NCBI GenBank assembly: GCA_964620495.1
Contig: CAZUHI010000040.1
Location: 5,323 to 69,322 of the forward strand
Source of the DNA: an uncultured Rickettsiales bacterium
GTDB taxonomy: Bacteria; Myxococcota_A; UBA796; UBA9615
Direction of reading: 5' to 3'
Length of the DNA: 64,000 nucleotides
Positions 45,444 to 58,341 of the stretch are shown piece after piece. The position numbers and the translations under genes are program-made. The notes beneath the pieces were generated by a model. That model was not told the origin of the DNA and made no database searches. It saw nothing but the letters and a program-made list of their open reading frames with translations. The stretch's first letter is position 1. Every line of letters starts with the position of its first letter.

Positions 45444-46031
45444 TCAGCTGCGCTGCGAGCCGTCGAGGACGGCGCGCCGGAGGTCTGCGTCGTCGGCGAA
45501 GCAGCCCAGGAACGCCGTGGACTCGATGCGACAGGGACGCCGGACGCCCCGGGCGAACACGCACATGGGGACGGCGTCGATGACGCAGGCGGCGCCCGCG
45601 GGGGCCAGGACCTGCATGAGCGTCTCGGCGACGTCGCGCGTGAGCCACTCCTGCAGCGTGAGCCGGTGGGCCACCGCGTCGAGCAACCGGACGATGCCGG
45701 AGAAGCCGATGGCGAGGCCGTCGGGCACATAGCCGATCGTCGCGCGGCCCTGGTAGGGCATGAGGTGGTGGGGGCAGGACGAGAAGAACTCGATGTCCTT
45801 CACGAGGACGAGATCGTCGGCCGTCTCGGGGAAGGGCTCGCCCAGGGCGGTGGCGGGCGAGGCCGAGTAGCCCTCGAGCAGGTCCGCCGCCCACGCCTCC
45901 GCGACCCGCGCGCCGGAGCGACGCAGGTGGGGGTTGGACGTGTCGAAGCCGGCCGCCTGGAGGAAGGTGTCGATGGCCGCGGCCATCGCCTCGGGGTCGG
46001 CGTCGCGGACGCGGGGGATGCGGTTCGTCAC
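45444..46031 (-). CDS. folE: GTP cyclohydrolase I
   Basis: 195-aa ORF with FFSSCPHHLMPYQGRATIGYVP and ...SGIVRLLDAVAHRLTLQE.... The GTG start overlaps the upstream stop (GTGA). Confidence 0.9.
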   Translation of the reverse strand: MTNRIPRVRDADPEAMAAAIDTFLQAAGFDTSNPHLRRSGARVAEAWAADLLEGYSASPATALGEPFPETADDLVLVKDIEFFSSCPHHLMPYQGRATIGYVPDGLAIGFSGIVRLLDAVAHRLTLQEWLTRDVAETLMQVLAPAGAACVIDAVPMCVFARGVRRPCRIESTAFLGCFADDADLRRAVLDGSQRS

Positions 46032-46438
46032 ACGACCTCCGCGGTCGAAGGGTGCGCCTGGGGGCGCCCCGGGGTGAGGAGCGCCTCCGGCACCGGTTCT
46101 CCCCGGTACACGACCCGGCAGTCGTCGGTCTCCCAGAGTCGGAGCTCGGTGAGCGACGGCAGGTCGGGGCGCAGGCGTCGCCAGAACCAGACCACGATCG
46201 CCTCCGCCGTGGGGTTCTCGAGCACGTCGTTGAAGCAGCTGCCGTCGGCCTCGCTGACCACTCCGCCGGCCGCGGCCTCCACGTCGTGGAAGTCGACGAC
46301 CATGCCGGAGTCCCCCGACGGGGTCCCCGACACCACCACCTCGAGCCGGTAGGAGTGGCCGTGCATGCGGAAGCAGCGCCCCACGTAGCGGGGCAGTCGG
46401 TGCGCCGCGCTGAAGCGGAAGTCGACGACGAGATCCAC
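46028..46438 (-). CDS. 6-pyruvoyl-tetrahydropterin / 6-carboxy-tetrahydropterin synthase family (PTPS/QueD)
   Basis: 136-aa ORF with FRFSAAHRL and C-x3-HGH (RCFRMHGHSY). Subfamily (QueD vs PTPS) cannot be decided by eye. Confidence 0.85.
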   Translation of the reverse strand: MDLVVDFRFSAAHRLPRYVGRCFRMHGHSYRLEVVVSGTPSGDSGMVVDFHDVEAAAGGVVSEADGSCFNDVLENPTAEAIVVWFWRRLRPDLPSLTELRLWETDDCRVVYRGEPVPEALLTPGRPQAHPSTAEVV

Positions 46439-46442
46439 GGGG

Positions 46443-48053
46443 TCAGCCCGGCTCGGCCCGGAACAGCTGCTCGAAGCCCTCGGTCTTCACCCCACGGGTC
46501 GTGAGCACGAAGCGATCCTCCGAGGTGAGGGAGCGGACCTCGATGCGGTGCGGCCAGGCACCGTCCCGGACCGGGCGGAGGTCGCCCGGGAGCACGCTGA
46601 CCACGGCGGCCCCTCGATGGAAGAGGCGGTCCTCGAGCACCGCCCCGCTCTCCGGGGCGAGGCGAAGGGCCCGCACCACGGCGTCGCCGTCCAGCTCCTG
46701 GAGGACCGCGCAGGCGCCCGGCTCCCAGCGCACCGACGCCGTCGCGGCGGGCGTCTTCAGGAGCGATACGAGCGCTGCGGGCTCGATCGTGCCCTCGGGG
46801 ACCTCGAGATCCGGGGCGCCGGTGCCGGACTCGGACGTGCTCTCCGTGGGGAGGTCGAGCTTCCAGCGCCCCTCCGCCTCGAGGTAGTCGAGCAGCGGCG
46901 TCGCCGCGGGACCGGCCACCAGCCGCACCCGCAGCTCGCCGGCCGCCCCCAGGGCGATGACTCCGTGCAGGCGCTCGCGCCGCGCGCCGATCTCCACCTG
47001 GACCTCCTGCTGGGCCAGCATCGGCACGATCGCCGCGCGCCGGTCGCGGAGGTCCTGCAGGGCGGCCCCGGCGTCGCCTCCGCCGGGCCAGTCCGCCTGC
47101 GCGACGCAGGGCTCTTCGGGGGGGGGCGCGACCGCCACCTGCTTCTGGCAGCCCGTCGCCGCGACCATCGTCACGAGGCCCGCCCCCAGGGCGAGCATCA
47201 AGGGCGACATCGTGGGCGGCGCGTAGCCGCTGCCGAGGCCGAGGCGGTCGCGGATCTTCGAGAGCGCGACGAGAGGCACGAACTCGCGCAGCAGGGTCAC
47301 CGCCGCCCGGTTGCACGTGGGCATCACCCGCTGGGGGGTCGCGGGGACCTCCACCTCGACCGTGGGCGTGCCCGCCTTCACGGCGAGGGCCAGCAGCTCC
47401 ATGTGGATGCCGATGCCGTTCTGGCGCAGGCGACGTCGCAGGACGGGCTGCAGGGGGAGGATTCGGGGGCCTCCCCAGGGGTGGGCGTAGCGCGTCTCCA
47501 CCACCGCCTCGAACACGTCCTCGACCCGCCCGTGCAGGCCGGGCGAGCGCGGGGGGCGGAAGTCGGGGTACGGGGGGGGCTCATCGCCGCGCGCGATGGC
47601 GGCCGCCTCGTCCCACTCCTTGCCCGCGATGGCTTCTCCCGGCCCGACGGCCAGCAGGATGGCCTCGGGCGCCCCCAGGTGGGCCGCGGCGAGGCCGTCC
47701 ACGACCTCCGGGGACAGGACCTCCTTGCGGGGGACAAGCGCGCCGATGAAGCCCAGCTCCCGCGCGAGGCGGAGCCCGGCCTTGAGCGCGGCGCCCTCTC
47801 CGGCGGGCGCGGGCAGCGTGAGGACCCTCGCCCCGGCCGCCTCGGCGACGCCCGAGGTCCCGTCGGTGCTCCCGTCGTCCACCACCACGACGTCCGCGCA
47901 GCGGTGGCGCAGGGCCTCGATCTGAGCGACCACCGTGGCGGCCTCGTCCCGGGGCGTGAGGACGCCGCACAGCCCGTCGAGGACCCCGTCGAGCGTGATG
48001 GTCTTGTCCGACGGCGGCGGGATGGGCGTGGTGGGCAGTCGAACTCGGGTCAC
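46443..48053 (-). CDS. Fusion: family-2 glycosyltransferase domain + internal lipobox/TM + periplasmic lipoprotein-like domain (DUF3261/LolB-like by context)
   Basis: GTG at 48053. GT2 signature VVVVDDGSTDGT...AGEGAALKAGL. An in-frame internal MSPLMLALGAGLVTMVAATGC (ATG at 47210) has no stop codon upstream. A ~255-aa beta-rich domain follows. Confidence 0.65.
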   Translation of the reverse strand: MTRVRLPTTPIPPPSDKTITLDGVLDGLCGVLTPRDEAATVVAQIEALRHRCADVVVVDDGSTDGTSGVAEAAGARVLTLPAPAGEGAALKAGLRLARELGFIGALVPRKEVLSPEVVDGLAAAHLGAPEAILLAVGPGEAIAGKEWDEAAAIARGDEPPPYPDFRPPRSPGLHGRVEDVFEAVVETRYAHPWGGPRILPLQPVLRRRLRQNGIGIHMELLALAVKAGTPTVEVEVPATPQRVMPTCNRAAVTLLREFVPLVALSKIRDRLGLGSGYAPPTMSPLMLALGAGLVTMVAATGCQKQVAVAPPPEEPCVAQADWPGGGDAGAALQDLRDRRAAIVPMLAQQEVQVEIGARRERLHGVIALGAAGELRVRLVAGPAATPLLDYLEAEGRWKLDLPTESTSESGTGAPDLEVPEGTIEPAALVSLLKTPAATASVRWEPGACAVLQELDGDAVVRALRLAPESGAVLEDRLFHRGAAVVSVLPGDLRPVRDGAWPHRIEVRSLTSEDRFVLTTRGVKTEGFEQLFRAEPG

Positions 48054-48072: not shown

Positions 48073-49161
48073 TCACGCGGCCCCCACGACGGAGACCCGG
48101 AGGCCGCCGCCGCGTGCGCAGGTGACGACCAGGGCCGCGCGGCCCCGGCATCCGTCGCCGTCAGCATGAACCGGCAGGGAACGATCCGCCAGCAGCAGCG
48201 CCGCGAGGGCCACGCGGAAGGCGCCGTCCGCGGGGTGCGTGCCGACCCGCCGGTGGTGGTCCGTCCGGGGGACGTCGCGGCCGAGGGCCGTCGCCACCGC
48301 GGCCTGCAGGGCCGGGTGGTCGGGGTGGGACAGCAGCGCGACGCCCACGTCTCCGGCCGCGGTCCTTGTGGCGTCCAGGGACCGGCGAATCAGCTCCACG
48401 AGGCCGTCGAGCCGGTCCGGCAGCAGCAGCGCGGACCGCCCGGACGGCGTGGACGCGCCCCAGGACCCCAGGAAGCGCGCGCGCACCTCGGCGCCCCGGG
48501 CCGCGGCCCGATCCGGCGTCTCCAGCAGGACCGCGGCGGCGCCCTCGCCCAGGGGCTGCGCGACGCTCCAGCCCGAGGCCGCCCGCGTGGCGCGCGCGAG
48601 GGTCTCCCCCAGCTCCTCCGCCCCGCTGCCGACCCCGGCCTCGATCCAGCCCGCGGCGATGCCGTCCGCGATCCAGGCGACGGCCTCGTCCCCGCAGGTC
48701 TCGTGCCGACAGAAGGTGTGCGACGGGCCGCGCAGCCCCAGGAAGATCCCCGCGTACCCCGCCCCCGCGTTGGGGACCAGGTTCGGGAAGTCCATGGGAT
48801 TGCAGAGCGCCGGGCCCTTCGCCTTGAGGCGCGAGAGGAACTTCCAGGTCTCGGTGAGCGTGCCGTAGTCGGTGCCCACCGCGAGCCCGAGGTTCTCGAG
48901 GTCCCCGAAGCCCGCGGCGTCGTCCCGGGCGTGGGCGATCCCCGAACAGATGATCTTGCTGAGCCGATCCATGCGCCGGAAGGCCTTGCGGTGATCGGGG
49001 TACAGCGCGGCCGCCTTGTACTTCGGGAGCTTCACGCCGCCCGCCTCGGGGCCGTCTCCGATCCGGTCGGCGGAGCGGCCCGCGCGCCAGGCCTCCACGA
49101 ACTCCTCGCGGCCCGACCCCAAGGGGGAGAGGACCCCGATGGAGGTGATGAAGGCGGTCAT
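48073..49161 (-). CDS. Ketosynthase-like protein lacking canonical Cys-His-His triad (chain-length-factor-like partner)
   Basis: ATG at 49161 overlaps the KS stop (ATGA). It has a thiolase-fold layout (ITSIGVLSPLG..., GYAGIFLGLRGPSHTF). No ACxS active-site context and no HGT or GH motifs are recognisable. Confidence 0.7.
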   Translation of the reverse strand: MTAFITSIGVLSPLGSGREEFVEAWRAGRSADRIGDGPEAGGVKLPKYKAAALYPDHRKAFRRMDRLSKIICSGIAHARDDAAGFGDLENLGLAVGTDYGTLTETWKFLSRLKAKGPALCNPMDFPNLVPNAGAGYAGIFLGLRGPSHTFCRHETCGDEAVAWIADGIAAGWIEAGVGSGAEELGETLARATRAASGWSVAQPLGEGAAAVLLETPDRAAARGAEVRARFLGSWGASTPSGRSALLLPDRLDGLVELIRRSLDATRTAAGDVGVALLSHPDHPALQAAVATALGRDVPRTDHHRRVGTHPADGAFRVALAALLLADRSLPVHADGDGCRGRAALVVTCARGGGLRVSVVGAA

Positions 49162-50402
49162 CGCGGCGCCTCGTAGTCCGGCGAGGCCACGCACAGGGAG
49201 CTGTCGTTGCCGCCGAAGGCGAAGCTGTTGCTCAGGAAGACGTCGAACGCCGCGTCGCGACCGACGCCGGGCACCGGGTCGATGTCGATGTCCGGGTCGC
49301 GCTCCTCCCAGCCCGCGGTGGGCGGCAGGAACCCGGCCTCCATGCCGAGCAGCGCGGCGGCCAGCTCGACGGCTCCCGAGGCGCCGAGGAGGTGGCCGGT
49401 CTGGGACTTCGTGGAGCTTACGGGGATGTCTCGACTCCCGAAGAGTCGGCGCACGCCTCGAGCCTCGGCGACGTCGTTGTGGGGCGTCGCCGTGCCGTGC
49501 GCGTTCACGTACCCGACGTGCTCCGGAGGCACGCCCGCGTCCCGCAGGGCCGCCCCCATGGCCCGCGCGGCGCCCGCGCCCGACGGATCGGGCTGCACCA
49601 GGTGGAAGGCCTCGGCCACGTTGCCGAACCCGAGGATGCGGGCGCGGATCCGGGCCCTTCGAGCCCTCGCGGTGGCCTCGTCCTCGAGCACGAACATGCC
49701 CGCGCCTTCGCCGATGACCATCCCCTGGCGACGCGCGTCGAAGGGCAGCGGGCGCTCCGGGGCGACGAGGCTGAGGCTGTTGAAGCCGGCGTGAGTGAGG
49801 CGACACAGCGCGTCGGAGCCGCCCACCACGACGCGGGAGCAGCGGCCCGATCGGATCCACATGGCGCCGAGGCCGACGGCGTTCGTCGAGGAGCTGCAGG
49901 CGGTGGAGATCGTGGTCGCGGGTCCTCGCAGCCGCGCGGCGCGGGCGAGGAAGTCGGTGGTCGTGCCCACCGGGGTCGTGAGGAGCAGGGAGGGCGCCGC
50001 CGTGACCCAGAAGTCGTCGTCCTCGGGGGTGTCCAGGAGCTCCGACTCCGCCTCCGGGGTCCCCGCGGTGCACGTGCCGACGGCCAAGCCGGCGTCGCGG
50101 AGGTCGTCCCGGTGCAGGCCCGCGTCCTGGAGCGCCTCGGCCAGGGCCGCCAGCCCGAACAGCGCCGTGCGGCCCTGGCGCGTGGTGAGCCGGACCCCGG
50201 TGGCGCGGGCCGCGGCGCGGACGGCCGGGGTGCGGACGTCTCCCCGGATCTGGCCCGCCACCGAGCTGCGGTACGCGGACGCGTCGAACAGGTCGATCGT
50301 GCCGACGCCGCAGTCCCCCGCCCGCAGTCCTCGCCCGTACGCCTCGAGGCCCACGCCCACGGGAGCGGCGACGCCCATCCCGGTGACGACGACGGAGGTC
50401 AC
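49158..50402 (-). CDS. Beta-ketoacyl-ACP synthase (FabF/KAS II-like)
   Basis: GTG at 50402 overlaps the dehydratase stop (GTGA). Shows VVVTGMG, active-site TACSSS, NAHGTATP, KSQTGHLLGASG and SNSFAFGGN. Confidence 0.9.
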   Translation of the reverse strand: MTSVVVTGMGVAAPVGVGLEAYGRGLRAGDCGVGTIDLFDASAYRSSVAGQIRGDVRTPAVRAAARATGVRLTTRQGRTALFGLAALAEALQDAGLHRDDLRDAGLAVGTCTAGTPEAESELLDTPEDDDFWVTAAPSLLLTTPVGTTTDFLARAARLRGPATTISTACSSSTNAVGLGAMWIRSGRCSRVVVGGSDALCRLTHAGFNSLSLVAPERPLPFDARRQGMVIGEGAGMFVLEDEATARARRARIRARILGFGNVAEAFHLVQPDPSGAGAARAMGAALRDAGVPPEHVGYVNAHGTATPHNDVAEARGVRRLFGSRDIPVSSTKSQTGHLLGASGAVELAAALLGMEAGFLPPTAGWEERDPDIDIDPVPGVGRDAAFDVFLSNSFAFGGNDSSLCVASPDYEAPR

Positions 50403-50809
50403 GCCGCCTCCGGAACGCCGCGACGTACCACGATCTTGCCCTGCGCGAGCATGCGGTGATGCACCCACACCTCGCCGTCGAGCATCACCATCGGGCCGAA
50501 GGCCTTGGTCTTTCGGATCTTGATGGTCAGCCGGTCGCCGGGGCGGGGCCGACCGGACACGCGCACCCCGTCCACCGACGCGAGCAGGCCCGTCTCGGGG
50601 TCCCCGCCGGCGGCCGCGTTCGCGAGGCCGTGCCAAGCCGCCGCGGCCTGGGCCATGGCCTCGACCATCAACAGGCCGGGGAGGAGCCGACGCGACCAGG
50701 AGTCGCCGGAGCGGGGGACGTCGTAGAGGAAGAGGCCGCCGGCCTCGTCGGTCCCCGACACGGTCGAGAGGAAGAGGAACGGGTCCCGGTGGGGGATCGG
50801 GAGGTCCAC
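50399..50809 (-). CDS. Hot-dog fold 3-hydroxyacyl-ACP dehydratase (FabA/FabZ-like, ApeI/ApeP-type)
   Basis: GTG at 50809. Shows LPIPHRDPFLFL and LPGLLMVEAMAQ. Confidence 0.8.
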   Translation of the reverse strand: MDLPIPHRDPFLFLSTVSGTDEAGGLFLYDVPRSGDSWSRRLLPGLLMVEAMAQAAAAWHGLANAAAGGDPETGLLASVDGVRVSGRPRPGDRLTIKIRKTKAFGPMVMLDGEVWVHHRMLAQGKIVVRRGVPEAA

Positions 50810-50819
50810 GCCCGGGGGC

Positions 50820-51083
50820 TCAGCCCGCGGTGCGGTTTGCGTTGATGTGGTCCGTGATCGTGCGCACGGTCTGGAAGATCGCCTCGCCACGGCCCTCATC
50901 GATCGTGACGCCGTAGTTCTCCTCGATGGCGACGGCCAGCTGGAGCGCGTCCAGGGAGTCGAGCTCCAACCCTTCGTCGCCGAACAGCGCGCCGTCGGGA
51001 TCCACGTCGTCCGCTTCGTAGTCCTCCGCGAGGTTCAGAGCCTCGAGGAGCATCGCGGTCACCTGTTGCGTCGTCAGCGACAT
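50820..51083 (-). CDS. Acyl carrier protein
   Basis: ATG at 51083 (MSLTTQQV...). Phosphopantetheine attachment site LELDSLDALQL. 87 aa, acidic. Confidence 0.85.
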   Translation of the reverse strand: MSLTTQQVTAMLLEALNLAEDYEADDVDPDGALFGDEGLELDSLDALQLAVAIEENYGVTIDEGRGEAIFQTVRTITDHINANRTAG

Positions 51084-51096
51084 GCGCGGCTTTCTA

Positions 51097-53610
51097 TCAA
51101 ACGCCGGCGCGGCTGTCATGACCGGCGCCGGGGGCGTCCGGGCCGGGCAGAAACCGCGCGAGCAAGGCAGGGAGCAGGACCACCGACGACCCGAACGCGA
51201 TGGCCAGGGCGAGCGACACGGCCCGCCCCATCCCCGCGAGCGCGTCGAAGCTGGAGAGCGACAGGACGCCGAACGCGGCGAGCGTGGTCAGCGTGGTCAC
51301 GAGGACGGCGCGGCCGGACCCGGCGAGGGTGTCGTCCAGGCGCCCGGGCCGCCCCCCGCGCTCGAGGTAGCGATCGAGCATGAAGAGGTGGTCGTCGATG
51401 CCGACGCCCACCAGCAGCGGGATCCCGGCCATCGCGAAGAATGTGATGGGTACGCCCAGGGCCGAGTAGATGCCCACGAAGACGAAGAGGCCGCCCGCGA
51501 GGGGCAGGAAGGCGACCCCGACGACGTCCCGCCGACGATAGTGAACGACGAGCACCAGCAGCAGCAGGACCGTACAGGCCCCGATGAGCCGGAAGATGCC
51601 CCACGAGAGGTACCCCTCCGCTTGCTGTTCGACGAGCGGCAGGCCCGTGACGTGGACGTTCACCCCCTCGACCGGGGGAGGCGCCGCCGAGAGCAGCGCG
51701 TCGTACACCTCCTGGGGGGTGGGGCCCGGGACGCGGTGGATGTGGGTGACGATCCGCACCTCGTCGTCGACCTCGGCGACGTGCTTCTCTGCGAACCAGC
51801 GCTGCCAGGCGGCCGCCGGGGCGAGCTCCGGCTCGGTGCCCGCGGCGAAGGCCCGGAGGCCGTCGAGGGCGGGGGTGAAGGGCTCCACGCGGAAGCCCTG
51901 GGCCAGCAGCGCCGCGCCCAGGTCGTCGGCGGCCTGCGCGACGTCCACCCGGGCGCGGAGCGCGTCCCGCCGGGCGGCGGCGGTTCTGCGGGCGGGCTCG
52001 AGGACGGAGAGGGTCTCGTAGGCCGCCACGGTCCCCGACTCCACGACCGCGTCGAGCACCTCCGCCCACGCGTCGTTCGCCTGGAGGACCTTCTCCCGGT
52101 CCGTCCCCTGGAGCAGGACGACCATGCGGCCCAGCTCCTCCCCGAAGTGCCTGTCGATCGCGCGATCGACCCGCACCGGGTCGAGGCTCAGGGGTCGGAA
52201 CCCGTCCATCTTCACGGAGAAGCCCAAGGGAGCCCGGAACGCGACGAGGGTCACGGCGAGGAGCACGTAGGCGACCAGGATCGCGGTGCTGCGGCGGTGG
52301 ATGAACCCGGCCGCCGCCCGCGCCGCGCCCGTCCCGACGCCGGGGTCCGGGCCGATCCGGTCGCCGAGGACGATCCACATGGCGGGGAGGACCGCGAGCA
52401 TCACCGCGGCGTTCACCAGCACGCCCATGCAGGCGAGGGCGCCCATCTGCGAGAGAGCCTTCGAGCCCACCACGGCGACGCCGAGGAGCGCCGCCGCCGT
52501 CGTGACCGCGGCCGTCACGACCGCGGGACCCACCGCCCGGACGGCGTCGATGGCCGCCTCGCGCGGGGGCTTGGCGCGACGCGACTCGCGATACCGGGAG
52601 GTCAGATGTACAGCCGGGTCCACGCCGAGGCCGAAGAGGATCGCCGCGAAGCCCGCCGCCATGGGGGTCAGCTCGCCGAGGAGCAGGCCGGGGCCGCCCA
52701 GGGTCAGGAGGACCGAGTAGGGGAGCAGGACCAGCATCGTGCCCAGGCTGTGGATCGAGCGGTAGAAGACCAGGAAGAGGAGGAGGACGGCGACGATCGA
52801 GACCAACGCCAGGCGGCCTGCGTCGGCGCGCGTGGCGTCCTCGATGTGGCGGGCGTACATCAGACCGCCGGTCATGCCGAAGCGGGCCCCGTGGCTGCCC
52901 TCCAGCACGGCGGCCGCCCGGGCGCGGAGGTCGTCCTCGAGCCGCTCGGAGAAGGCGCGGGGGCTGCCCTCCACCGGGACGGGCCGCACGATCATGAGGA
53001 GGGCGCGGCCGTCCGGCGAGATGAAGCCCCCGCCCGCGGCGTCGAAGCGGCGGACCCCGCTGCGCAGGCGGGCACCGAGGAGCTCGAGGAGGCCCAGGGG
53101 ATCGCGGAGCAGCAGACCTCGAGTGTCCGCGTCCATGGGCGACATCAGCAGGTTCTTGAGGCCCTCGGCCCGGGCCTCCAGCGCCCCCGGCGTCACCCGG
53201 TTCTCGATCTCCGAGATGCCCGCGTCGTCCAGGAGGTCGAGGGTGAGCAGGGGGTCCGTCGCGGGCAAGCCCTCGGCGGGGCGGATCGCGGCCGAGACCA
53301 CCAGCTCCGAGGACTCGAACGCGTCGACCAGGCGCTCGCCCATCGCCGCCAGCGCCGCGGGGTCCGACTCCTCGACCTCGACCAGCCCGTAGACGGCCTC
53401 GGCCTCCGCGAAGCCCTGGAGCCAGAGCGCGAGCCCCCGGGCGGGTCCGGCGCGGTCCGGGAGCATGCTCGCCAGATCCCCGGTGATCGATACCGAGAGC
53501 AGCCCCGGCATCGCCAGGATCCCCACGAGGGCCGCGATCAAGAGCGTGCGGCCGGGCCGCCCGGTGGACAGCCCGGCGAGCTTCATGAGCGCGCGGCGGA
53601 GGGGGGTCAA
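51097..53610 (-). CDS. MMPL/RND-superfamily exporter ('predicted exporter', ApeM-like)
   Basis: About 830 aa with two blocks of ~6 TM helices, each preceded by a large loop. The start is either TTG at 53610 or ATG at 53586. Confidence 0.85.
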   Translation of the reverse strand: MTPLRRALMKLAGLSTGRPGRTLLIAALVGILAMPGLLSVSITGDLASMLPDRAGPARGLALWLQGFAEAEAVYGLVEVEESDPAALAAMGERLVDAFESSELVVSAAIRPAEGLPATDPLLTLDLLDDAGISEIENRVTPGALEARAEGLKNLLMSPMDADTRGLLLRDPLGLLELLGARLRSGVRRFDAAGGGFISPDGRALLMIVRPVPVEGSPRAFSERLEDDLRARAAAVLEGSHGARFGMTGGLMYARHIEDATRADAGRLALVSIVAVLLLFLVFYRSIHSLGTMLVLLPYSVLLTLGGPGLLLGELTPMAAGFAAILFGLGVDPAVHLTSRYRESRRAKPPREAAIDAVRAVGPAVVTAAVTTAAALLGVAVVGSKALSQMGALACMGVLVNAAVMLAVLPAMWIVLGDRIGPDPGVGTGAARAAAGFIHRRSTAILVAYVLLAVTLVAFRAPLGFSVKMDGFRPLSLDPVRVDRAIDRHFGEELGRMVVLLQGTDREKVLQANDAWAEVLDAVVESGTVAAYETLSVLEPARRTAAARRDALRARVDVAQAADDLGAALLAQGFRVEPFTPALDGLRAFAAGTEPELAPAAAWQRWFAEKHVAEVDDEVRIVTHIHRVPGPTPQEVYDALLSAAPPPVEGVNVHVTGLPLVEQQAEGYLSWGIFRLIGACTVLLLLVLVVHYRRRDVVGVAFLPLAGGLFVFVGIYSALGVPITFFAMAGIPLLVGVGIDDHLFMLDRYLERGGRPGRLDDTLAGSGRAVLVTTLTTLAAFGVLSLSSFDALAGMGRAVSLALAIAFGSSVVLLPALLARFLPGPDAPGAGHDSRAGV

Positions 53611-53626
53611 GGGGGCGTCGGGGAGG

Positions 53627-55114
53627 TCAAGGGGCGGCGGAGCGCTCGGCCGGGGTCAGGAACGCGTCCGGGTCGAGGGTCGCGCCCAGCGTCAGGGCGG
53701 AGAAGACGATCACGGTGCGGTCGCCGGAGGCCTCGTCCATGGCGATGCGGCGAAGCGCGGTGGGGGTCCCGTCGATCGTCAGCTCCACCTTCACGAACAT
53801 GGCGCGCGCGGCGGGCACCCGGGGCGCGAGGGTCCACGTCCCCTCCCCGGTCGCCTCGGCCTCGAAGAAGGCCTGCAGCGTGTCCGCGTCCAGGGCGAAG
53901 AGCGACTCCATGATGCGGCCGCTCTTCTCGGCGCCCGGCAGCGCCCAGCCGCTCGCCCCGGCGCCGATCTCCTCCTGCGACTTGTCGGCCGGGTAGAAGC
54001 GCCCGTCCGCCATGAGGACCTTGGGGCCGCCGTCGTACGCCCAGATCAGCCGCCCGTCCGACCGACGCAGCTGCAGATCGCCGGTGCGCACGACCTCCTT
54101 CGCGAACAGCGCGGAGGTCTTCCGCTGCTCGAAGCGGGCCTTCACCGTGGCGTGACTCGCGAGCTCTGCGCACGCGGCCTGCAGCCCCTCGGGCAGCGGG
54201 TTCTTCCCTGCGGCGGAGGCCGAGCCGGCCGCCCCGAGCAGGAGCATCCCCACGATCAACACGGTCGCCCACTCGAGGGCGGAGCGGCGGGGACGGGTGC
54301 GGTCGACGGCCATCGGGTCCTCCAGGTACGCCGGCTCGCCCGTGAGATCCGCGACGGTCACCGCCTGCAGCCCGCGCTGCGCCAACCCGTCGAGGATGGT
54401 GGGCAGCGCGGCCAGGACCGGGGGCTCGCGAGGCGCACCGAGCGTGGCGTCGTGGAGTAGGACGATGTCTCCGCCCCGAACCTTCGAGAGAACCCGGGAC
54501 ACCACCCGGGGGGCCTCGAGGCCCCCCCCGTCGAAGGGGCGCACGGCCCAGGCCGCGACCCGGACCCCCCACCGGCGGAGGGTCGCGTACACCGGCGGCG
54601 CGATGAGACCGACCGGAGGCCGGTAGAAGCGCGGCGACACCCCCGAGGCCTCTTGCACGACGCGCATGCCCTGCTCGAAGTCGTCCGCGAACCGGCGCGG
54701 CGACAGCATCAACGACCACCGATGAGCGTGCCCGTGGAACGCCACCTGGTGCCCGCGTCGCACGATCTCGCGGGCGACCCCGCCGTGCTCCGCCACCCGG
54801 CGACCCACCACGAAGAACGTCCCCCGGGCCCCCGCCGCCTCGAGCAGATCCAACACGCGGGGCGTGGTCTCGGGGTCCGGCCCGTCGTCGAAGGTGAGGG
54901 CGACGGCGTCGCTCCGCGGGGACCGGCTGACGGCCGCGCCGAAGAGCTGCCACTGGGGGAAGAACCCGGCCCCGAAGACGAAGGCGAGCAGGCCCAACGC
55001 GCCCGCGACGTCCAGGGCCCAGAGGTCGGGGGCGAAGCGGTGGCCGGCGACGACGGTGACCAGGCCGCCCGCGAGCAGCGCAGGCCAGATCAACGTCGGC
55101 CAGGGTCGGGTCAC
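53627..55114 (-). CDS. Fusion: 2-TM anchor + NodB-type polysaccharide deacetylase + internal signal/TM + LolA-like lipoprotein-carrier domain
   Basis: GTG at 55114 overlaps the upstream stop (GTGA). Deacetylase motifs LTFDDGP and HGHAH. An in-frame MAVDRTRPRRSALEWATVLIVGMLLLGAAGSASA (ATG at 54313) has no intervening stop. A LolA-like beta-fold follows (ARFEQRKTSALF...GDLQL....RLIW.Y). Confidence 0.7.
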   Translation of the reverse strand: MTRPWPTLIWPALLAGGLVTVVAGHRFAPDLWALDVAGALGLLAFVFGAGFFPQWQLFGAAVSRSPRSDAVALTFDDGPDPETTPRVLDLLEAAGARGTFFVVGRRVAEHGGVAREIVRRGHQVAFHGHAHRWSLMLSPRRFADDFEQGMRVVQEASGVSPRFYRPPVGLIAPPVYATLRRWGVRVAAWAVRPFDGGGLEAPRVVSRVLSKVRGGDIVLLHDATLGAPREPPVLAALPTILDGLAQRGLQAVTVADLTGEPAYLEDPMAVDRTRPRRSALEWATVLIVGMLLLGAAGSASAAGKNPLPEGLQAACAELASHATVKARFEQRKTSALFAKEVVRTGDLQLRRSDGRLIWAYDGGPKVLMADGRFYPADKSQEEIGAGASGWALPGAEKSGRIMESLFALDADTLQAFFEAEATGEGTWTLAPRVPAARAMFVKVELTIDGTPTALRRIAMDEASGDRTVIVFSALTLGATLDPDAFLTPAERSAAP

Positions 55115-56997
55115 GGGGCGGTCGCCTCGCCCGCCGGCGGCCTCACCTGCCCGAAGAGATCGGCGAGCTGCTCGGCGAACCGCGCGGGCTCGGTCGTGGC
55201 GTTGGGCGACAGGTGCCGACCCGTCCACCGAACGACCGTCTCCCGGTTGAACAGCGGGCCGGACCAGGACCCGTAGCTGCGGGCCTCCCAGAATGGCGTC
55301 GAGCGCTTGAGGGACGGGGAGCCGACCCCGGGGCGACGCCCCTGAAAGCGCCAGGACTCCCGCAGCTCGAACGCGAAGAGCTGCGTGTCCACCCCCAGGG
55401 TCTCCGATGTCGCGCGCGAGGGGGCGCCGTGCCGCACCGTGGGCAGCGGCGGGGGCAGGATGCTGCCGTCCGGCCCCGCCACCGCGGCGGCGTCGACCGA
55501 GCCGGTCGCCTGCACCACGACGCGCCCGCCGGAGGCGTCCGAGATCTCCGTCGTGAGCGACTCGGCCCACGGGCCCGCCGCCCAGATCAGGTCGCCCGAG
55601 GGCACCCGCTCCGCCGGACGACCGGCGCGCTCCCACTCCCGCACCCGGGCCGCGGGGGCGCCCTGCAGGCGACCGGTGAGGCTGATCGCGAAGCGGCCGT
55701 CCTCGCCCTCCGTGGCGCGCAGGGACCAGCTCGACGCGAGCAGCTCGCCCGGCAGCCGCAGCCAACGGGCCCCTTCGGGGGCGAGCAGGACCGCCGAGCG
55801 GCCCGCCAGCAGCTCCTCCGTCTCGCCGAGCCAGGCCGAAGACAGGGCGGGATCGATGAACAACGGCCGCCCTTCGGCGACGAAGACGTCCGGCACGTAG
55901 ACCAGGGTGCGATCGAGGACCGGGACCACGCGCTCGGGGTTGGGCTCCTGCCCGTCGGTCGACGTCAACACCACCTCGGCGCGCACGTCCGCGGTCCGAA
56001 GGAGGGCCATCAGCAGGGCCGCGCGGTCGGCCGTCGTGCCGCGCTTCTCCTCGAGGGTGTACTGGGCCGACTGCGGCAGGCGCCACGTGCCGCCGCGGCC
56101 GCCGTTCGCGTCGAGCGCGGTCTCGTCCAGGGCGATGCGGGCGGCCTCGCGCACCGACGGGAGCCCACCCCCGCGGCCGAGGACGCGGCCCGCCATGCCG
56201 ATCACGGGGCCGGTGGCCCGCGCGGCGGCCAGGTACTGGAGGCGATGGTCGAGGGCCACGTCGTCCCACGCGTCGCCGGAGGTGACCACGACCTCCGGGA
56301 CCCGACCCGCGAGGCTGCGGATGCCGCCCGCGGGGGGCCGCGCCTGCACGCCCTCGAGCTCGAAGAAGACACGGAGCTTGCCGCCGTCGAGCGCCTGCTT
56401 GCGCAGCTCGGTGTCCCACCGGAGCAGCTGCACCGTGGGCTCCGCCTCGGCGAAGGACTCCACGGAGAAGACCAGCCGCTCGGCTGCGCCTGCGGGCGGC
56501 TGCACGGCGAACCGGAACGCGAAGCGGTCGTCGAGGCCGTCGATGCGGGTTCGGCGGACGCGCACCTCGGCGGTGACCTCGTCTTCGCCGGCCGGGAGCA
56601 CGACGCCGCAGCCCGCGAGGCCGCGCTCGTCCACGTCCCCGACGTGGATCTCCAGGCCGGACTCGAGCTCCTCCTCGGGATCGTCCGACTCGGCGACGGC
56701 GTCGTTCACCACCCGGCAGGACTCGCCGAGGCTGGGATCGAACTCCGCCAGCACCACCGGCGAGGGCGCGTTCGTGCGTCGCTGGATCACGGCCCTGGTG
56801 CGCAGCTCGAAGGCGTCGGGCTCGACCAGATCGAGGGTCGTCTCCACGCTGCGCAGGAGCATGGAGCCGGCGGCCGGGTTGCGGTCGCTGACGAAGAAGT
56901 GCTTCCAGCCGCCCGCGTCCACGGCGGGGCCCCGCTTGGCGCCCACGGCGGGGCTCGCGGCGAGCAGGATCAGGGCGACGGGGAGCAGGCGGCGCAT
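55111..56997 (-). CDS. Secreted DUF3857/transglutaminase-like protein, catalytic Cys apparently absent
   Basis: 628-aa ORF. Signal peptide MRRLLPVALILLAASPAVGA. The segment RGTTADRAALLMALLRTADVRAEVVL resembles the transglutaminase-core helix (G-C-x-D-FA-x-L..ALLRA.GI.AR.V) with Thr in place of Cys. Confidence 0.5.
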   Translation of the reverse strand: MRRLLPVALILLAASPAVGAKRGPAVDAGGWKHFFVSDRNPAAGSMLLRSVETTLDLVEPDAFELRTRAVIQRRTNAPSPVVLAEFDPSLGESCRVVNDAVAESDDPEEELESGLEIHVGDVDERGLAGCGVVLPAGEDEVTAEVRVRRTRIDGLDDRFAFRFAVQPPAGAAERLVFSVESFAEAEPTVQLLRWDTELRKQALDGGKLRVFFELEGVQARPPAGGIRSLAGRVPEVVVTSGDAWDDVALDHRLQYLAAARATGPVIGMAGRVLGRGGGLPSVREAARIALDETALDANGGRGGTWRLPQSAQYTLEEKRGTTADRAALLMALLRTADVRAEVVLTSTDGQEPNPERVVPVLDRTLVYVPDVFVAEGRPLFIDPALSSAWLGETEELLAGRSAVLLAPEGARWLRLPGELLASSWSLRATEGEDGRFAISLTGRLQGAPAARVREWERAGRPAERVPSGDLIWAAGPWAESLTTEISDASGGRVVVQATGSVDAAAVAGPDGSILPPPLPTVRHGAPSRATSETLGVDTQLFAFELRESWRFQGRRPGVGSPSLKRSTPFWEARSYGSWSGPLFNRETVVRWTGRHLSPNATTEPARFAEQLADLFGQVRPPAGEATAP

Positions 56998-57042: not shown

Positions 57043-58341
57043 TTAGGGAGCGGAGTCGTCGTCGTCCGCGGCGGAGTCGTCGTCGTCCCCGAAGCACGAG
57101 TCGGGCAGGTCGTACGGGAAGCCCGCCGAGTCGTCGTCGTCGCCGACGCCGTCGAGGATCTCGAGGTCGATGCCCGAGCTGAGGCGGCGCGGGAGCGTGT
57201 CCACGAGCAGCCAGCCGGGCCGCTGCTCCAGGACCACCCCGAACATGAAGGCCAGACCGAGGTCCTGCCCGGGCGCGGTGAGCCAGACGAGGCGCTTGTT
57301 GCCGTCCGCGATGAGCAGATCGCAGGGAGCCTCTTCGGTGTAGACGAGGTCCCCGTCGTCCACCCAGCCGACCTCGGTGTAGACGGCGCCGGTGAGGTTC
57401 GGGACGGCCACCGTCTCCGAGAGGAGGTTCGCGTCCAGGGCGCCCAAGTGGTCCGCGGGAGGCGTGCCGTTCACGGGCCAGTCGATGAGGTCGTCGCGCA
57501 GGTTGTTGCTGGCCGGGGTCACGAACAGCACCGGGTTCGCGGGCGCGGCGATCTCCATCAGGCCGGACAGCGAGCCGTGCCAGGCGGCGACGAGCGAGCC
57601 GTCGGGGAACGAGATGTCGGTGTCCACGGGGACGTCGCCGCCCGTGACGGACAGCAGACGCACGCGCATCGTGAGTCCCTGGGAGCTGTTCACGCCCTCG
57701 GGGTGGTGCTCGAGGTTCAGCTCGCCGCCGAGCACGTCGCGCGCGACGTTCCAGCCGGGCCCACCGCTGCCGATCGCGTCGGTCACCGCGTCCACGTCCT
57801 TCGCGTCGATGTACACGACCCAGTCGCCGGACCCCGCGAGCAGCGTGTCGCCCGCGTTGAAGCCGCCGCTGCCGTCGCCGTCGACGTACGCGAACGGGGC
57901 GAACATGGCGGCCGAGACGCCCTTGGCGACCTCCGTGAGGAGGCCCGCGTCGACGGTCTCTTCCACGTAGTTCGCGTAGGTGGCCTGGCCCGCGACCAGC
58001 GAGACCTTCGCCGCCGCGATGAGGTCGGAGTCCCACTCTTCGCCGAACGTCGGGCCCTTCGCCTGGGCGAGGAAGAGTCCGGCGCGCACGTCGCCCGCGG
58101 GGACCGAGCCGTCTGTGGGCTGGTACGCGAGGCTGCCGCCGATGGGGATGCCCTCGGGGATGACGAGGTCGTCGTCGTTCGGGCCCGCGTCGTCGTCGTC
58201 CACGCCCGCGTCGTCGTCGTCCGTGACGTCCGGCGGCGTGGGGTCGACGGTGCCGTCTTCCGTGGGGCAGCCCTGCCAGAGGAGGAGCGCCCCGACGCCG
58301 AGGCCCAGCGTGGTCCAGAGAATGCCGCGGGAGTCGGTCAT
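57043..58341 (-). CDS. Lipoprotein with N-terminal and C-terminal poly-Asp tracts
   Basis: ATG at 58341 overlaps the Rieske gene stop (ATGA). Shows LLLWQGC (lipobox), DDDDAGVDDDDAGPNDDD, and a C-terminus DDDDSAGF...GDDDDSAADDDDSAP. Confidence 0.65.
   Translation of the reverse strand: MTDSRGILWTTLGLGVGALLLWQGCPTEDGTVDPTPPDVTDDDDAGVDDDDAGPNDDDLVIPEGIPIGGSLAYQPTDGSVPAGDVRAGLFLAQAKGPTFGEEWDSDLIAAAKVSLVAGQATYANYVEETVDAGLLTEVAKGVSAAMFAPFAYVDGDGSGGFNAGDTLLAGSGDWVVYIDAKDVDAVTDAIGSGGPGWNVARDVLGGELNLEHHPEGVNSSQGLTMRVRLLSVTGGDVPVDTDISFPDGSLVAAWHGSLSGLMEIAAPANPVLFVTPASNNLRDDLIDWPVNGTPPADHLGALDANLLSETVAVPNLTGAVYTEVGWVDDGDLVYTEEAPCDLLIADGNKRLVWLTAPGQDLGLAFMFGVVLEQRPGWLLVDTLPRRLSSGIDLEILDGVGDDDDSAGFPYDLPDSCFGDDDDSAADDDDSAP

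Follow-up and report, generated by a model that had tools for sequence, protein, structure and literature searches.

A NodB-type deacetylase joined through an internal signal sequence to a LolA-like domain: a probable two-in-one precursor in an aryl-polyene/flexirubin-type operon

The window, the 64,000-nucleotide stretch of DNA that was analysed, holds an operon in which a single gene encodes a deacetylase and a LolA-like domain with no stop codon between them. Is the product a permanent tether between a cytoplasmic enzyme and a periplasmic lipid carrier, or a precursor that yields two proteins? The positions given for the gene in a preliminary description of the locus were right, but the gene itself lies on the minus strand. 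The order of parts was also as first described: two TMs, LTFDDGP at residues 73-79, HGHAH at 127-131, MAVDRTRPRRSALEWATVLIVGMLLLGAAGSASA at 268-301 and then the LolA-like domain. The features of the gene are as follows.

53627..55114, minus strand: whole ORF, with a 2-TM hairpin, a NodB deacetylase, an internal signal sequence (TM3) and a LolA-like domain (ORF, Pfam, GC3, AF2, contig comparison)
54962..55099, minus strand: N-terminal helical hairpin, TM1 residues 6-27 and TM2 residues 29-51 (AF2 helices, K+R counts)
54335..54919, minus strand: CE4/NodB deacetylase domain, residues about 66-260, predicted cytoplasmic (Pfam, invariant residues, PDB profile, Foldseek)
54281..54334, minus strand: linker and positive n-region, residues 261-278 (PAYLEDPMAVDRTRPRRS), with an SD-like GGAGGA at 54318-54323 and an ATG at 54311-54313 (sequence)
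54212..54280, minus strand: TM3, internal Sec-type signal sequence, residues 279-301 (column counts, segment comparison, AF2 helix)
53636..54190, minus strand: LolA-fold domain, residues 309-493, predicted periplasmic (Pfam LolA, Foldseek, charge after TM3)

The ORF is a single reading frame of 495 aa (52.8 kDa) that starts with a GTG at 55114, in a GTGA overlap with the stop of the gene upstream, and ends with the stop codon 53627-53629. Its AF2 model has a mean pLDDT of 92 and places membrane-type helices at residues 6-27, 29-51 and 279-301. Deacetylase and LolA-like genes are adjacent yet separate in distant clusters (the Bacteroidota-like locus L095 and flxP-U of Chitinophaga), and two such neighbours could have been joined by a mistake in sequencing or assembly through which a stop was lost or the frame shifted. 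Against this, the GC3 frame signal (0.91-0.98) stays in the same frame across the junction, Logan contigs from two subsurface metagenome runs are identical to the window over 53600-55150 (0 indels, 14-21x depth), and 42 more fused homologs come from independent metagenomes. Because independent contigs are identical and further homologs have the same architecture, the fusion is genuine and not an assembly error; the artefact explanation is effectively refuted and keeps almost no probability. The in-frame fusion claimed from the start therefore stands, and the contigs call for no sequence correction that would put a stop near 54313.

The same architecture was found in at least 43 homologs. The fused set compared here has 43 full-length sequences with 40-67% identity, that is, the window protein and 42 others of 475-532 aa. 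The gene order of the window operon is repeated in relatives at 39-47% identity. The fused family is small, with 9 clusters among 1.84 billion representatives. Relatives were also sought in metagenomes with a 6-sequence alignment of the LolA domain. A scan of a genome collection with the full alignment, for which generic NodB motifs were chosen, gave only stand-alone deacetylases among the matches listed and is uninformative on which named species carry the fusion.

The deacetylase part matches Polysacc_deac_1 (PF01522) over residues 66-186 with 100.5 bits, against a cutoff of 23.1, and PDB profiles down to an E value of 8e-50. In the AF2 model it adopts the CE4 (beta/alpha) barrel fold, with a Foldseek match to 7fbw at a TM-score of 0.94 and an rmsd of 1.3 A. 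D76, D77, H127, H131, R165-P166-P167, H221 and D222 are invariant in the 43 sequences, and the metal-binding Asp-His-His triad and the catalytic motifs (TFDD, H-x3-H, RPP, LxHD) are intact in the window protein. It passed no equivalog cutoff among those compared (NodB 96.5 vs 240 bits, PdaB 111.5 vs 237 bits). The window deacetylase thus resembles NodB in its fold, its Asp-His-His and catalytic motifs, its predicted cytoplasmic side and the product of a family-2 glycosyltransferase as its putative substrate, and differs from it in that score and in having a 2-TM hairpin and a third TM. ArnD is a CE4/NodB deacetylase that acts on the cytoplasmic side.

The LolA-like part matches Pfam LolA (PF03548) over residues 322-485 with a marginal 26.1 bits (cutoff 23.6), and a precomputed Pfam LolA match exists for only 8 of the 43 homologs. 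Its model is an unclosed beta-barrel with a helical lid, and Foldseek aligned it to 8v1k, 2w7q, 6f3z, 1ua8 and other LolA structures with TM-scores of 0.62-0.70 and E values of about 1e-10 to 3e-8. The domain stayed below the equivalog cutoffs of TIGR00547 lolA (23.8 vs 112 bits) and NF053544 LolA2_flexi (33.1 vs 125 bits), and the latter score means that it is no LolA2 ortholog.

The two parts are strongly inferred to be separated by the membrane, with the NodB domain cytoplasmic and the LolA-like domain periplasmic, as the preliminary description had it. Mean K+R counts over the 43 sequences are 1.28 at the N terminus, 0.07 in the TM1-TM2 loop and 2.07 after TM2, the pattern expected of a hairpin with its N terminus inside and a short connecting loop nearly devoid of K/R; the net charge after TM3 is -2.2. 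The topology also agrees with other lineages, in which members of this deacetylase family run straight into cytoplasmic SAM-methyltransferase or PlsC domains and lack an intervening hydrophobic segment.

The operon around the gene is an aryl-polyene/flexirubin-type membrane-lipid cluster with the following further features.

51097..53610, minus strand: MMPL/RND (HpnN/HAE3-like) exporter, 16 nt downstream of the fusion gene (profile matches, neighbours in relatives)
48073..51119, minus strand: type II PKS/FAS core in the same operon (profile matches; same order in relatives)
50820-51119, minus strand: ACP of the type II PKS/FAS core
50399-50899, minus strand: FabA/ApeP-like dehydratase of the core
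49158-50636, minus strand: KS of the core
within 48073-50073, minus strand: KS-like partner in the core
46443..48053, minus strand: second fusion, 536 aa, with a GT-A glycosyltransferase, an internal lipoprotein signal and a LolB/LolA-superfamily domain

Of the components by which ape clusters are defined (10.1101/2020.12.19.423268), the operon has the KS, the CLF-like partner, the ACP, the dehydratase and the RND transporter; for the ketoreductase (ApeQ-type), also part of that definition, no SDR/KR match was found in the 15 operon ORFs scanned. The exporter, which likewise neighbours the gene in six related loci (L081, L082, L087, L089, L090 and L092), is presumed to be the lipid donor to the LolA-like carrier.

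A second fusion of the same logic, already pointed out in the preliminary description, is indeed present and conserved, and each of the two fusions is kept in about 40-50 homologs. Its internal segment has a lipobox, [LVI][ASTG][GA]C, after a hydrophobic core, with G301 in 38 and C302 in all of 41 sequences (Cys302 being nt 47148-47150 in the window). By the lipobox criteria the segment is a bacterial lipoprotein signal, with lipidation and cleavage predicted. The C-terminal half was assigned to the LolB fold by structure search only, a Pfam scan of the protein having given no match there.

How the LolA-like domain leaves the cytoplasm depends on TM3. Cleavage sites were called by motif and by homology. 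In all 43 sequences the n-region has a charge of +1 to +6, the core is hydrophobic, the c-region consists of small/polar residues and the start of the mature part is acidic; R276 is present in 37. A Tat signal, suggested by the conserved RR, was rejected because R277 is Trp in 10 of the 43. The c-region A299-S-A301 (nt 54212-54220) is a predicted signal peptidase I site, with the cut at A301/A302. The -3 position is A299 in 39 of the 43 sequences (entropy 0.59 bits, against 2-3 bits for the neighbours) and the -1 position is A/G301 in 40. The A-x-A/G motif lies 1-10 residues ahead of LPPEL, the conserved sequence with which the LolA domain begins; this is the same register as in the N-terminal signal peptides of five stand-alone LolA-like proteins (L087, L090, P0139, P0147 and P0155). 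TM3 was first described as a retained LolA signal peptide, and locus L095 bears this out: there the end of the deacetylase gene (...PAYA) overlaps the start of a separate LolA-like gene with a signal peptide of its own. By its n-region, its core and its -3/-1 positions TM3 qualifies as a cleavable Sec (type I) signal peptide, and we infer that it is cut. The genome has 74% G+C and alanine is abundant, so some A-x-A is expected by chance.

The same segment can be read as a permanent signal-anchor. The LolA-like domain would then be fixed at the outer face of the inner membrane by the MMPL exporter, as the first acceptor, and would stay joined to the cytoplasmic deacetylase, a possibility that we regard as rather unlikely although several observations speak for it. 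The hydrophobic and c-region stretch has a bilayer-spanning length in the fused proteins (median 22 residues, range 19-25, versus 14-22 in most stand-alone LolA-like signal peptides), and in the AF2 model a single continuous helix runs through A-x-A; signal peptidases tend to process long helical segments less well. TM3 also has a V-x-x-T motif (V284/T287), both positions of which are conserved and shared with stand-alone 3-TM deacetylases; this shows a structural role of TM3, which would be compatible with an uncleaved anchor too. The retention of both fusions in their homologs is in line with a tether. Membrane-anchored LolA-fold carriers exist as well: mycobacterial LppX/LprG are anchored lipid carriers that work with MmpL transporters, and LptC is also anchored. 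A tether, however, leaves unexplained the conserved A-x-A/G and the invariant lipobox Cys of the glycosyltransferase fusion. In the window protein TM3 and the LolA fold are only about 8 residues apart, too short a distance for a tethered domain to cross the periplasm. Soluble stand-alone LolA-like proteins in the same cluster type and the loss of A-x-A in the stand-alone 3-TM deacetylases also speak against it.

Unfused relatives of both parts were found. Unfused LolA-like genes occur in the same cluster type (L087, L088 and L090), and where a stand-alone LolA-like gene is followed by MMPL-ACP, the 3 kb upstream of it contain no deacetylase. Two other candidates, P0044 and P0045, were rejected as unfused relatives of this cluster type, their gene contexts being different. 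Stand-alone 3-TM deacetylases that end right after TM3 are represented by P0134 (8 contigs) and P0136 (a real TAA). These share RRS and V-x-x-T with the fused proteins and do not have A-x-A, which is thus retained solely in front of a further domain. In both domain trees the fused forms have stand-alone LolA-like genes and the stand-alone 3-TM deacetylases interspersed among them, and strongly supported branches of the deacetylase tree require at least 2 changes of state between fused and unfused.

Since the internal export signal retains a signal-peptidase cut site, the gene probably encodes a two-in-one precursor and not a permanently coupled machine. We lean, with some reserve, towards the reading that the fusion gene is a precursor yielding two proteins. 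The glycosyltransferase fusion is best read as a second precursor polyprotein, with signal peptidase I putatively acting on the first and signal peptidase II on the second; to function, a LolB-type outer-membrane receptor has to be cut free. The physically coupled modify-and-hand-off mechanism put forward in the preliminary description appears to be the weaker reading, given the conserved A-x-A/G and lipobox Cys and the unfused LolA-like genes. A small secreted LolA-like product and a separate deacetylase, the outcome named there as speaking against coupling, seem the more likely result, because the processing motifs are the best-conserved positions of both signals and unfused genes occur in the same cluster type.

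Two products could also arise at translation. Ribosomes would also, or mainly, start at the ATG at 54313, behind the GGAGGA that lies 4 nt ahead of it, and make a 24-kDa pre-LolA-like protein with an N-terminal signal peptide, so that separate products would arise even if the long form stayed uncut; this would be compatible with both the precursor and the tether models, and we hold it to be improbable. An SD match of at least 5 nt with an in-frame start just before the n-region was found in 3 of 6 loci (the window, L081 and L091), and there are only 13 such sites in about 3,200 codons overall. The spacing is poor in L082, L089 and L092 have no such site, and the nucleotide comparison covers six sequences only. 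The ATG singled out in the preliminary description is thus present with a strong Shine-Dalgarno sequence, but Met268 is conserved in only 3 of the 43 proteins. The GAGGAG strings encode conserved acidic residues after EPAY, so the SD signal may be a by-product of the protein sequence.

Under the precursor reading, the N-terminal hairpin would insert first and leave the NodB deacetylase on the cytoplasmic side, where it would de-N-acetylate a lipid-linked HexNAc head group set by the glycosyltransferase of the operon, giving a free amine. NodB, ArnD and LpxC free an amine in their pathways. TM3, the presumed former signal peptide of the LolA-like gene, would then drive Sec-dependent export of the C-terminal domain, and signal peptidase I would cut after A299-S-A301 to release a soluble LolA-fold carrier, the equivalent of ApeL/LolA2 (predicted mature product residues 302-495, 20.6 kDa). 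TM3 would be left as the third membrane helix of a 32-kDa deacetylase. The carrier would take up lipid at the neighbouring MMPL exporter and deliver it to a LolB-fold lipoprotein, which would likewise be released from its fusion through Lgt and signal peptidase II. The gain from fusion could be 1:1 co-production, co-insertion beside the exporter and, for either enzyme, a membrane anchor at no extra cost, but it would not be a lasting link between enzyme and carrier. We propose, tentatively, that the two halves of a private LolA/LolB-like shuttle are each made as the C-terminal portion of a cytoplasmic tailoring enzyme, with the internal type I and type II signals serving as processing sites and kept as C-terminal enzyme anchors, a paired polyprotein strategy for membrane-lipid biogenesis. 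We know of no natural precedent for an internal lipobox as a processing site.

Clusters of the aryl-polyene/flexirubin type rank among the most widespread gene clusters in bacteria, and the route of their lipids out of the inner membrane is so far only a proposal. In the proposed scheme, LolA-like, LolB-like and RND proteins bring aryl-polyene lipids and flexirubin to the outer membrane (10.1101/2020.12.19.423268; PMC11885536; PMC3992019), and LolA2/LolB2 of Flavobacterium johnsoniae are dedicated to the pigment locus (PMC11885536). The ape clusters of Xenorhabdus doucetiae and E. coli CFT073 have a type II KS/CLF/ACP/DH core and the set ApeL (LolA-like), ApeM (RND), ApeN (LolB-like) and ApeJ (glycosyltransferase), as does the window, but all of these proteins are separate there, whereas in the window the LolA-like part follows the deacetylase and the LolB-like part the glycosyltransferase. 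The Xenorhabdus lipid retains an N-acetylated GalNAc, which counts against the proposed deacetylation step, and no deacetylase is among the ape genes discussed (10.1101/2020.12.19.423268). The genes flxP-flxU of Chitinophaga pinensis include a polysaccharide deacetylase, an acyltransferase, a LolA-like protein, a glycosyltransferase and an exporter, as in the window, all as separate genes (PMC3992019). In the window the LolA-like and LolB-like parts are covalently placed behind two head-group enzymes, which ties four proteins and the MMPL exporter to one pathway. The lineage is in this sense a natural experiment, and from the fusion one would expect the head group to be converted from HexNAc to HexN at the cytoplasmic face. 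Without cleavage, the RND exporter would have a TM-tethered LolA-fold acceptor, a rare arrangement; with cleavage, the gene would offer a compact route by which one chain gives an exported protein as well as an anchored cytoplasmic-facing enzyme, the signal peptides serving a second time as anchors.

A cut of the proposed kind has parallels. In the polytopic cytochrome b-c1 precursor FbcH of Bradyrhizobium, signal peptidase I acts between the last TM and the exported domain. [quoted passage not shown] The LtaS cut inactivates one enzyme, whereas that in the window protein would part two functional proteins that are unrelated and face different sides of the membrane, and its sister protein would use signal peptidase II. 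The housekeeping LolA/LolB resemble the predicted pair in their open beta-barrel fold and in being a soluble carrier and a lipoprotein receptor, but they go with LolCDE and sort lipoproteins, whereas the window pair is encoded in a lipid operon by an MMPL exporter, with a glycolipid or polyketide lipid as its presumed cargo.

The G+C content of the window is ~74%, at which long spurious ORFs are plentiful. The fused ORF of the preliminary description, here called the first fusion, was confirmed.

53627-55114, minus strand: first fusion, 495 aa, GTG start at 55114, stop at 53627-53629
residues 66-186: Polysacc_deac_1 (Pfam, 100.5 bits)
residues 322-485: LolA (Pfam, 26.1 bits, barely exceeding the cutoff of 23.6)

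G+C at third codon positions is 0.91-0.98 in a single frame over 53800-55000, junction included. Logan contigs from two subsurface-metagenome runs, which may derive from the sample that the window itself came from, are letter-identical to the window over 53600-55150 at a depth of 14-21x, which excludes a local indel made by the assembler. Upstream lies a transglutaminase-like gene whose stop codon shares bases with this GTG (GTGA). All motifs quoted earlier were found, and the internal ATG was located at 54313. In an AlphaFold2 model made with 43 homologs as input (mean pLDDT 92), helices at residues 6-27, 29-51 and 279-301 (TM3) accompany two barrels, one of CE4 and one of LolA type. Foldseek on this model matched the deacetylase to CE4 esterases (7fbw, TM-score 0.94) and the LolA part to the crystal structures 8v1k, 2w7q, 6f3z and 1ua8 (E 2e-10 to 3e-8, TM-score 0.62-0.70).

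A search of 5.8 billion proteins gave 42 more full-length homologs (475-532 aa, 40-67% identity, 86-100% coverage), drawn from metagenomes in JGI, ENA, Logan and NCBI; some already carried both functions in their JGI annotation. The 43 sequences all align end to end, with invariant NodB catalytic residues. The family is real but small, since exhaustive phmmer found only 9 full-length representatives among 1.84 billion cluster representatives. No paper describing the fusion was found in a literature search. Architecturally it is a new version of an export module that was known before, although its sequences were already in databases.

The first fusion belongs to an operon with all genes in one direction. 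From upstream to downstream these encode a Rieske protein, a poly-Asp lipoprotein, a transglutaminase-like protein, the first fusion, an MMPL/RND exporter starting 16 nt further on (51097-53610, minus strand), ACP, a FabA/ApeP-like dehydratase, KS, a KS-like partner, a glycosyltransferase fusion, PTPS, GTP cyclohydrolase I and two unknown proteins. This gene set is of the aryl-polyene/flexirubin family. There, the completed lipid is proposed to reach the outer membrane by way of an RND exporter, a LolA-like protein and a LolB-like lipoprotein (10.1101/2020.12.19.423268; PMC11885536). Chitinophaga flxP-flxU comprises deacetylase, acyltransferase, LolA, glycosyltransferase and exporter, but there the deacetylase and LolA are separate genes (PMC3992019), whereas in the window they are fused. 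A Burkholderiaceae locus is likewise unfused: it encodes an acyltransferase, a 203-aa LolA-like protein that has a signal peptide of its own, MMPL and a deacetylase of 297 aa with 2 TMs. The gene order around the first fusion is retained in relatives of 39-47% identity. The gene immediately upstream varies: it is the transglutaminase-like protein in the window (55111-56997) and an HD-domain protein both before the fusion of the related locus L082 (7982-9958, Pfam HD_5/HD) and before the stand-alone LolA-like gene of L087 (286-2826, assigned by reading the sequence alone).

The charges flanking the hydrophobic segments were averaged over the 43 sequences.

before TM1: mean K+R 1.28
TM1-TM2 loop: mean K+R 0.07
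after TM2: mean K+R 2.07
before TM3: mean K+R 3.49
after TM3: net charge -2.2

Such a pattern is expected when the N terminus of the hairpin is inside, NodB is in the cytoplasm and TM3 crosses from inside to outside, with the LolA-like domain predicted to be periplasmic. In other lineages, the nearest deacetylases are joined directly to a SAM-methyltransferase domain or to an acyltransferase domain of PlsC or LPLAT type. Nothing hydrophobic separates NodB from the methyltransferase or from PlsC, which independently supports a cytoplasmic NodB, so the topology first proposed stands. Relatives of this membrane-anchored NodB family in other lineages (P0051, P0198, P0258, P0242, P0166) have LPLAT/PlsC acyltransferases, SAM-methyltransferases, DUF2062 and YkoP as partners. 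The family thus repeatedly fuses with lipid-tailoring enzymes encoded nearby.

The TM3 region resembles a signal peptide in 43/43 sequences: its n-region is positively charged, its core hydrophobic and its c-region small/polar, and the part behind it begins with acidic residues. By column counts, A299 (39/43) and A/G301 (40/43) are conserved far above their neighbours and are followed by A/G and E/D. Conserved small residues at -3 and -1 are the classic signal peptidase I rule. Stand-alone LolA-like proteins 45-52% identical to the fused domain (L087, L088, L090, P0139, P0147, P0155) have ordinary N-terminal signal peptides with A-x-A placed in register with that of TM3, 1-10 residues ahead of a conserved LPPEL. 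In L095, a locus further removed, the end of a 2-TM deacetylase gene (...PAYA) runs into the beginning of a gene for a LolA-like protein that has a signal peptide of its own, a layout that is plausibly the pre-fusion state. The anatomy, the shared register and L095 support the view that TM3 contains a retained signal peptide. That TM3 is a signal peptide only was ruled out, as a homologous TM3 is present in stand-alone deacetylases. Several of these end 0-5 residues past it (P0134, found on 8 contigs; P0136, with a real TAA stop and then an unrelated poly-Asp lipoprotein gene; P0138; P0044-46; P0141). They share with the fused proteins an RRS n-region and a V-x-x-T motif (V284 and T287, each in 40/43 fused sequences), and they are without A-x-A. 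Thus the N-terminal half of TM3 follows the deacetylase and the c-region follows the exported domain.

Such a split would be predicted for a precursor cleaved with TM3 left on the enzyme. We lean towards this reading, in which signal peptidase I would divide the first fusion into a carrier and a deacetylase. Sec would export the C-terminal domain, and cutting past A301 would release a 20.6-kDa periplasmic carrier from a 32.2-kDa 3-TM cytoplasmic deacetylase (computed masses). Signal peptidase I cleavage of a polytopic protein is documented for LtaS/SpsB (PMC12260438). The carrier would take lipid up at the MMPL exporter and deliver it to the LolB-like lipoprotein, and the deacetylase may act on a HexNAc head group in the inner leaflet, by analogy with NodB, ArnD and LpxC and given the frequent acyltransferase fusions of the enzyme. 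The preliminary description had instead proposed a permanent tether, a physically coupled modify-and-hand-off machine with TM3 uncleaved. Its topology and retained signal peptide held, but the tether is less likely than the cleaved precursor. It is nonetheless the chief alternative, favoured by a somewhat long TM3 (median 22 residues versus 14-22 in stand-alone signal peptides) with conserved helix residues. Internal initiation at ATG 54313 is a minor, non-exclusive possibility. A near-consensus Shine-Dalgarno GGAGGA lies 4 nt ahead of this in-frame ATG (54311-54323, minus strand), before the internal signal, and a comparable arrangement just upstream of the n-region occurs in two other loci (L081, L091) and is missing from L082, L089 and L092. 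Met268 is present in just 3/43 sequences, and the GAGGAG strings double as codons for conserved acidic residues.

The first fusion is not obligatory. The order LolA-like, MMPL, ACP, DH also occurs in L087, L088 and L090 (MMPL ~47%, ACP 56-60% identical), where no deacetylase was found within 3 kb upstream of the LolA-like gene. In the LolA-domain tree, stand-alone forms fall in two places amid fused ones (SH-aLRT 87-94); its strongly supported branches by themselves are compatible with a single change of state. Those of the deacetylase tree require at least two changes (fusion or fission), with P0136 and P0045 nested among fused proteins (clade support 99%).

The second fusion of the operon (GT2; 48053 to 46443, minus strand, 536 aa) is conserved in ~48 homologs. 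Both fusions share one contig in at least one case, and matching contig sizes point to a dozen others. The internal hydrophobic segment of the GT2 fusion terminates in a lipobox (G301 38/41, C302 41/41; C302 at 47148-47150 in the window). In its model (pLDDT 86), the GT-A domain is most like glucosyl- and mannosyl-3-phosphoglycerate synthases, a hint that the acceptor may be of phosphoglycerate or glycerol-phosphate type. The C-terminal half had no Pfam match, and its best structural matches are of the LolA/LolB superfamily (3bk5, 9tp6, 3buu, 1iwm, 9rlg_L, 9tpm; E 5e-10 to 4e-8, TM-score 0.54-0.64), with the modelled barrel beginning directly behind the invariant Cys. An invariant +1 Cys would have no obvious role within a plain TM helix, and a LolB-type outer-membrane receptor needs lipidation and release by cleavage to act. 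Together these give indirect yet independent support for processing of both fusions. Paired internal type I and type II signals with intact motifs are unusual. The GT2 fusion is not universal, since its halves are called as separate overlapping ORFs in L082.

PTPS and GTP cyclohydrolase I genes lie within the lipid operon in the window (45444-46438, minus strand) and in L082 (18833-19893), and FolE is also on the contig of P0013. Their retention in distant relatives indicates that a pterin/7-deazapurine-type branch is part of the cluster and not a chance neighbour. Poly-Asp lipoproteins of one style occur in the window (57043-58341 and others) and in L096 (2543-2668, after a stand-alone 3-TM deacetylase), the latter with (D4-x)n tracts immediately behind the lipobox (MRSTLLFLSLLLAACPSGTDDDDATSDDDD...), so the style is a trait common to the lineage. 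At the P0134 locus (L097-L099), the stand-alone 3-TM deacetylase is beside B12-binding radical SAM, flavodoxin-like, LPLAT and convergent MMPL genes; this is a lipid cluster of different organisation employing the same enzyme.
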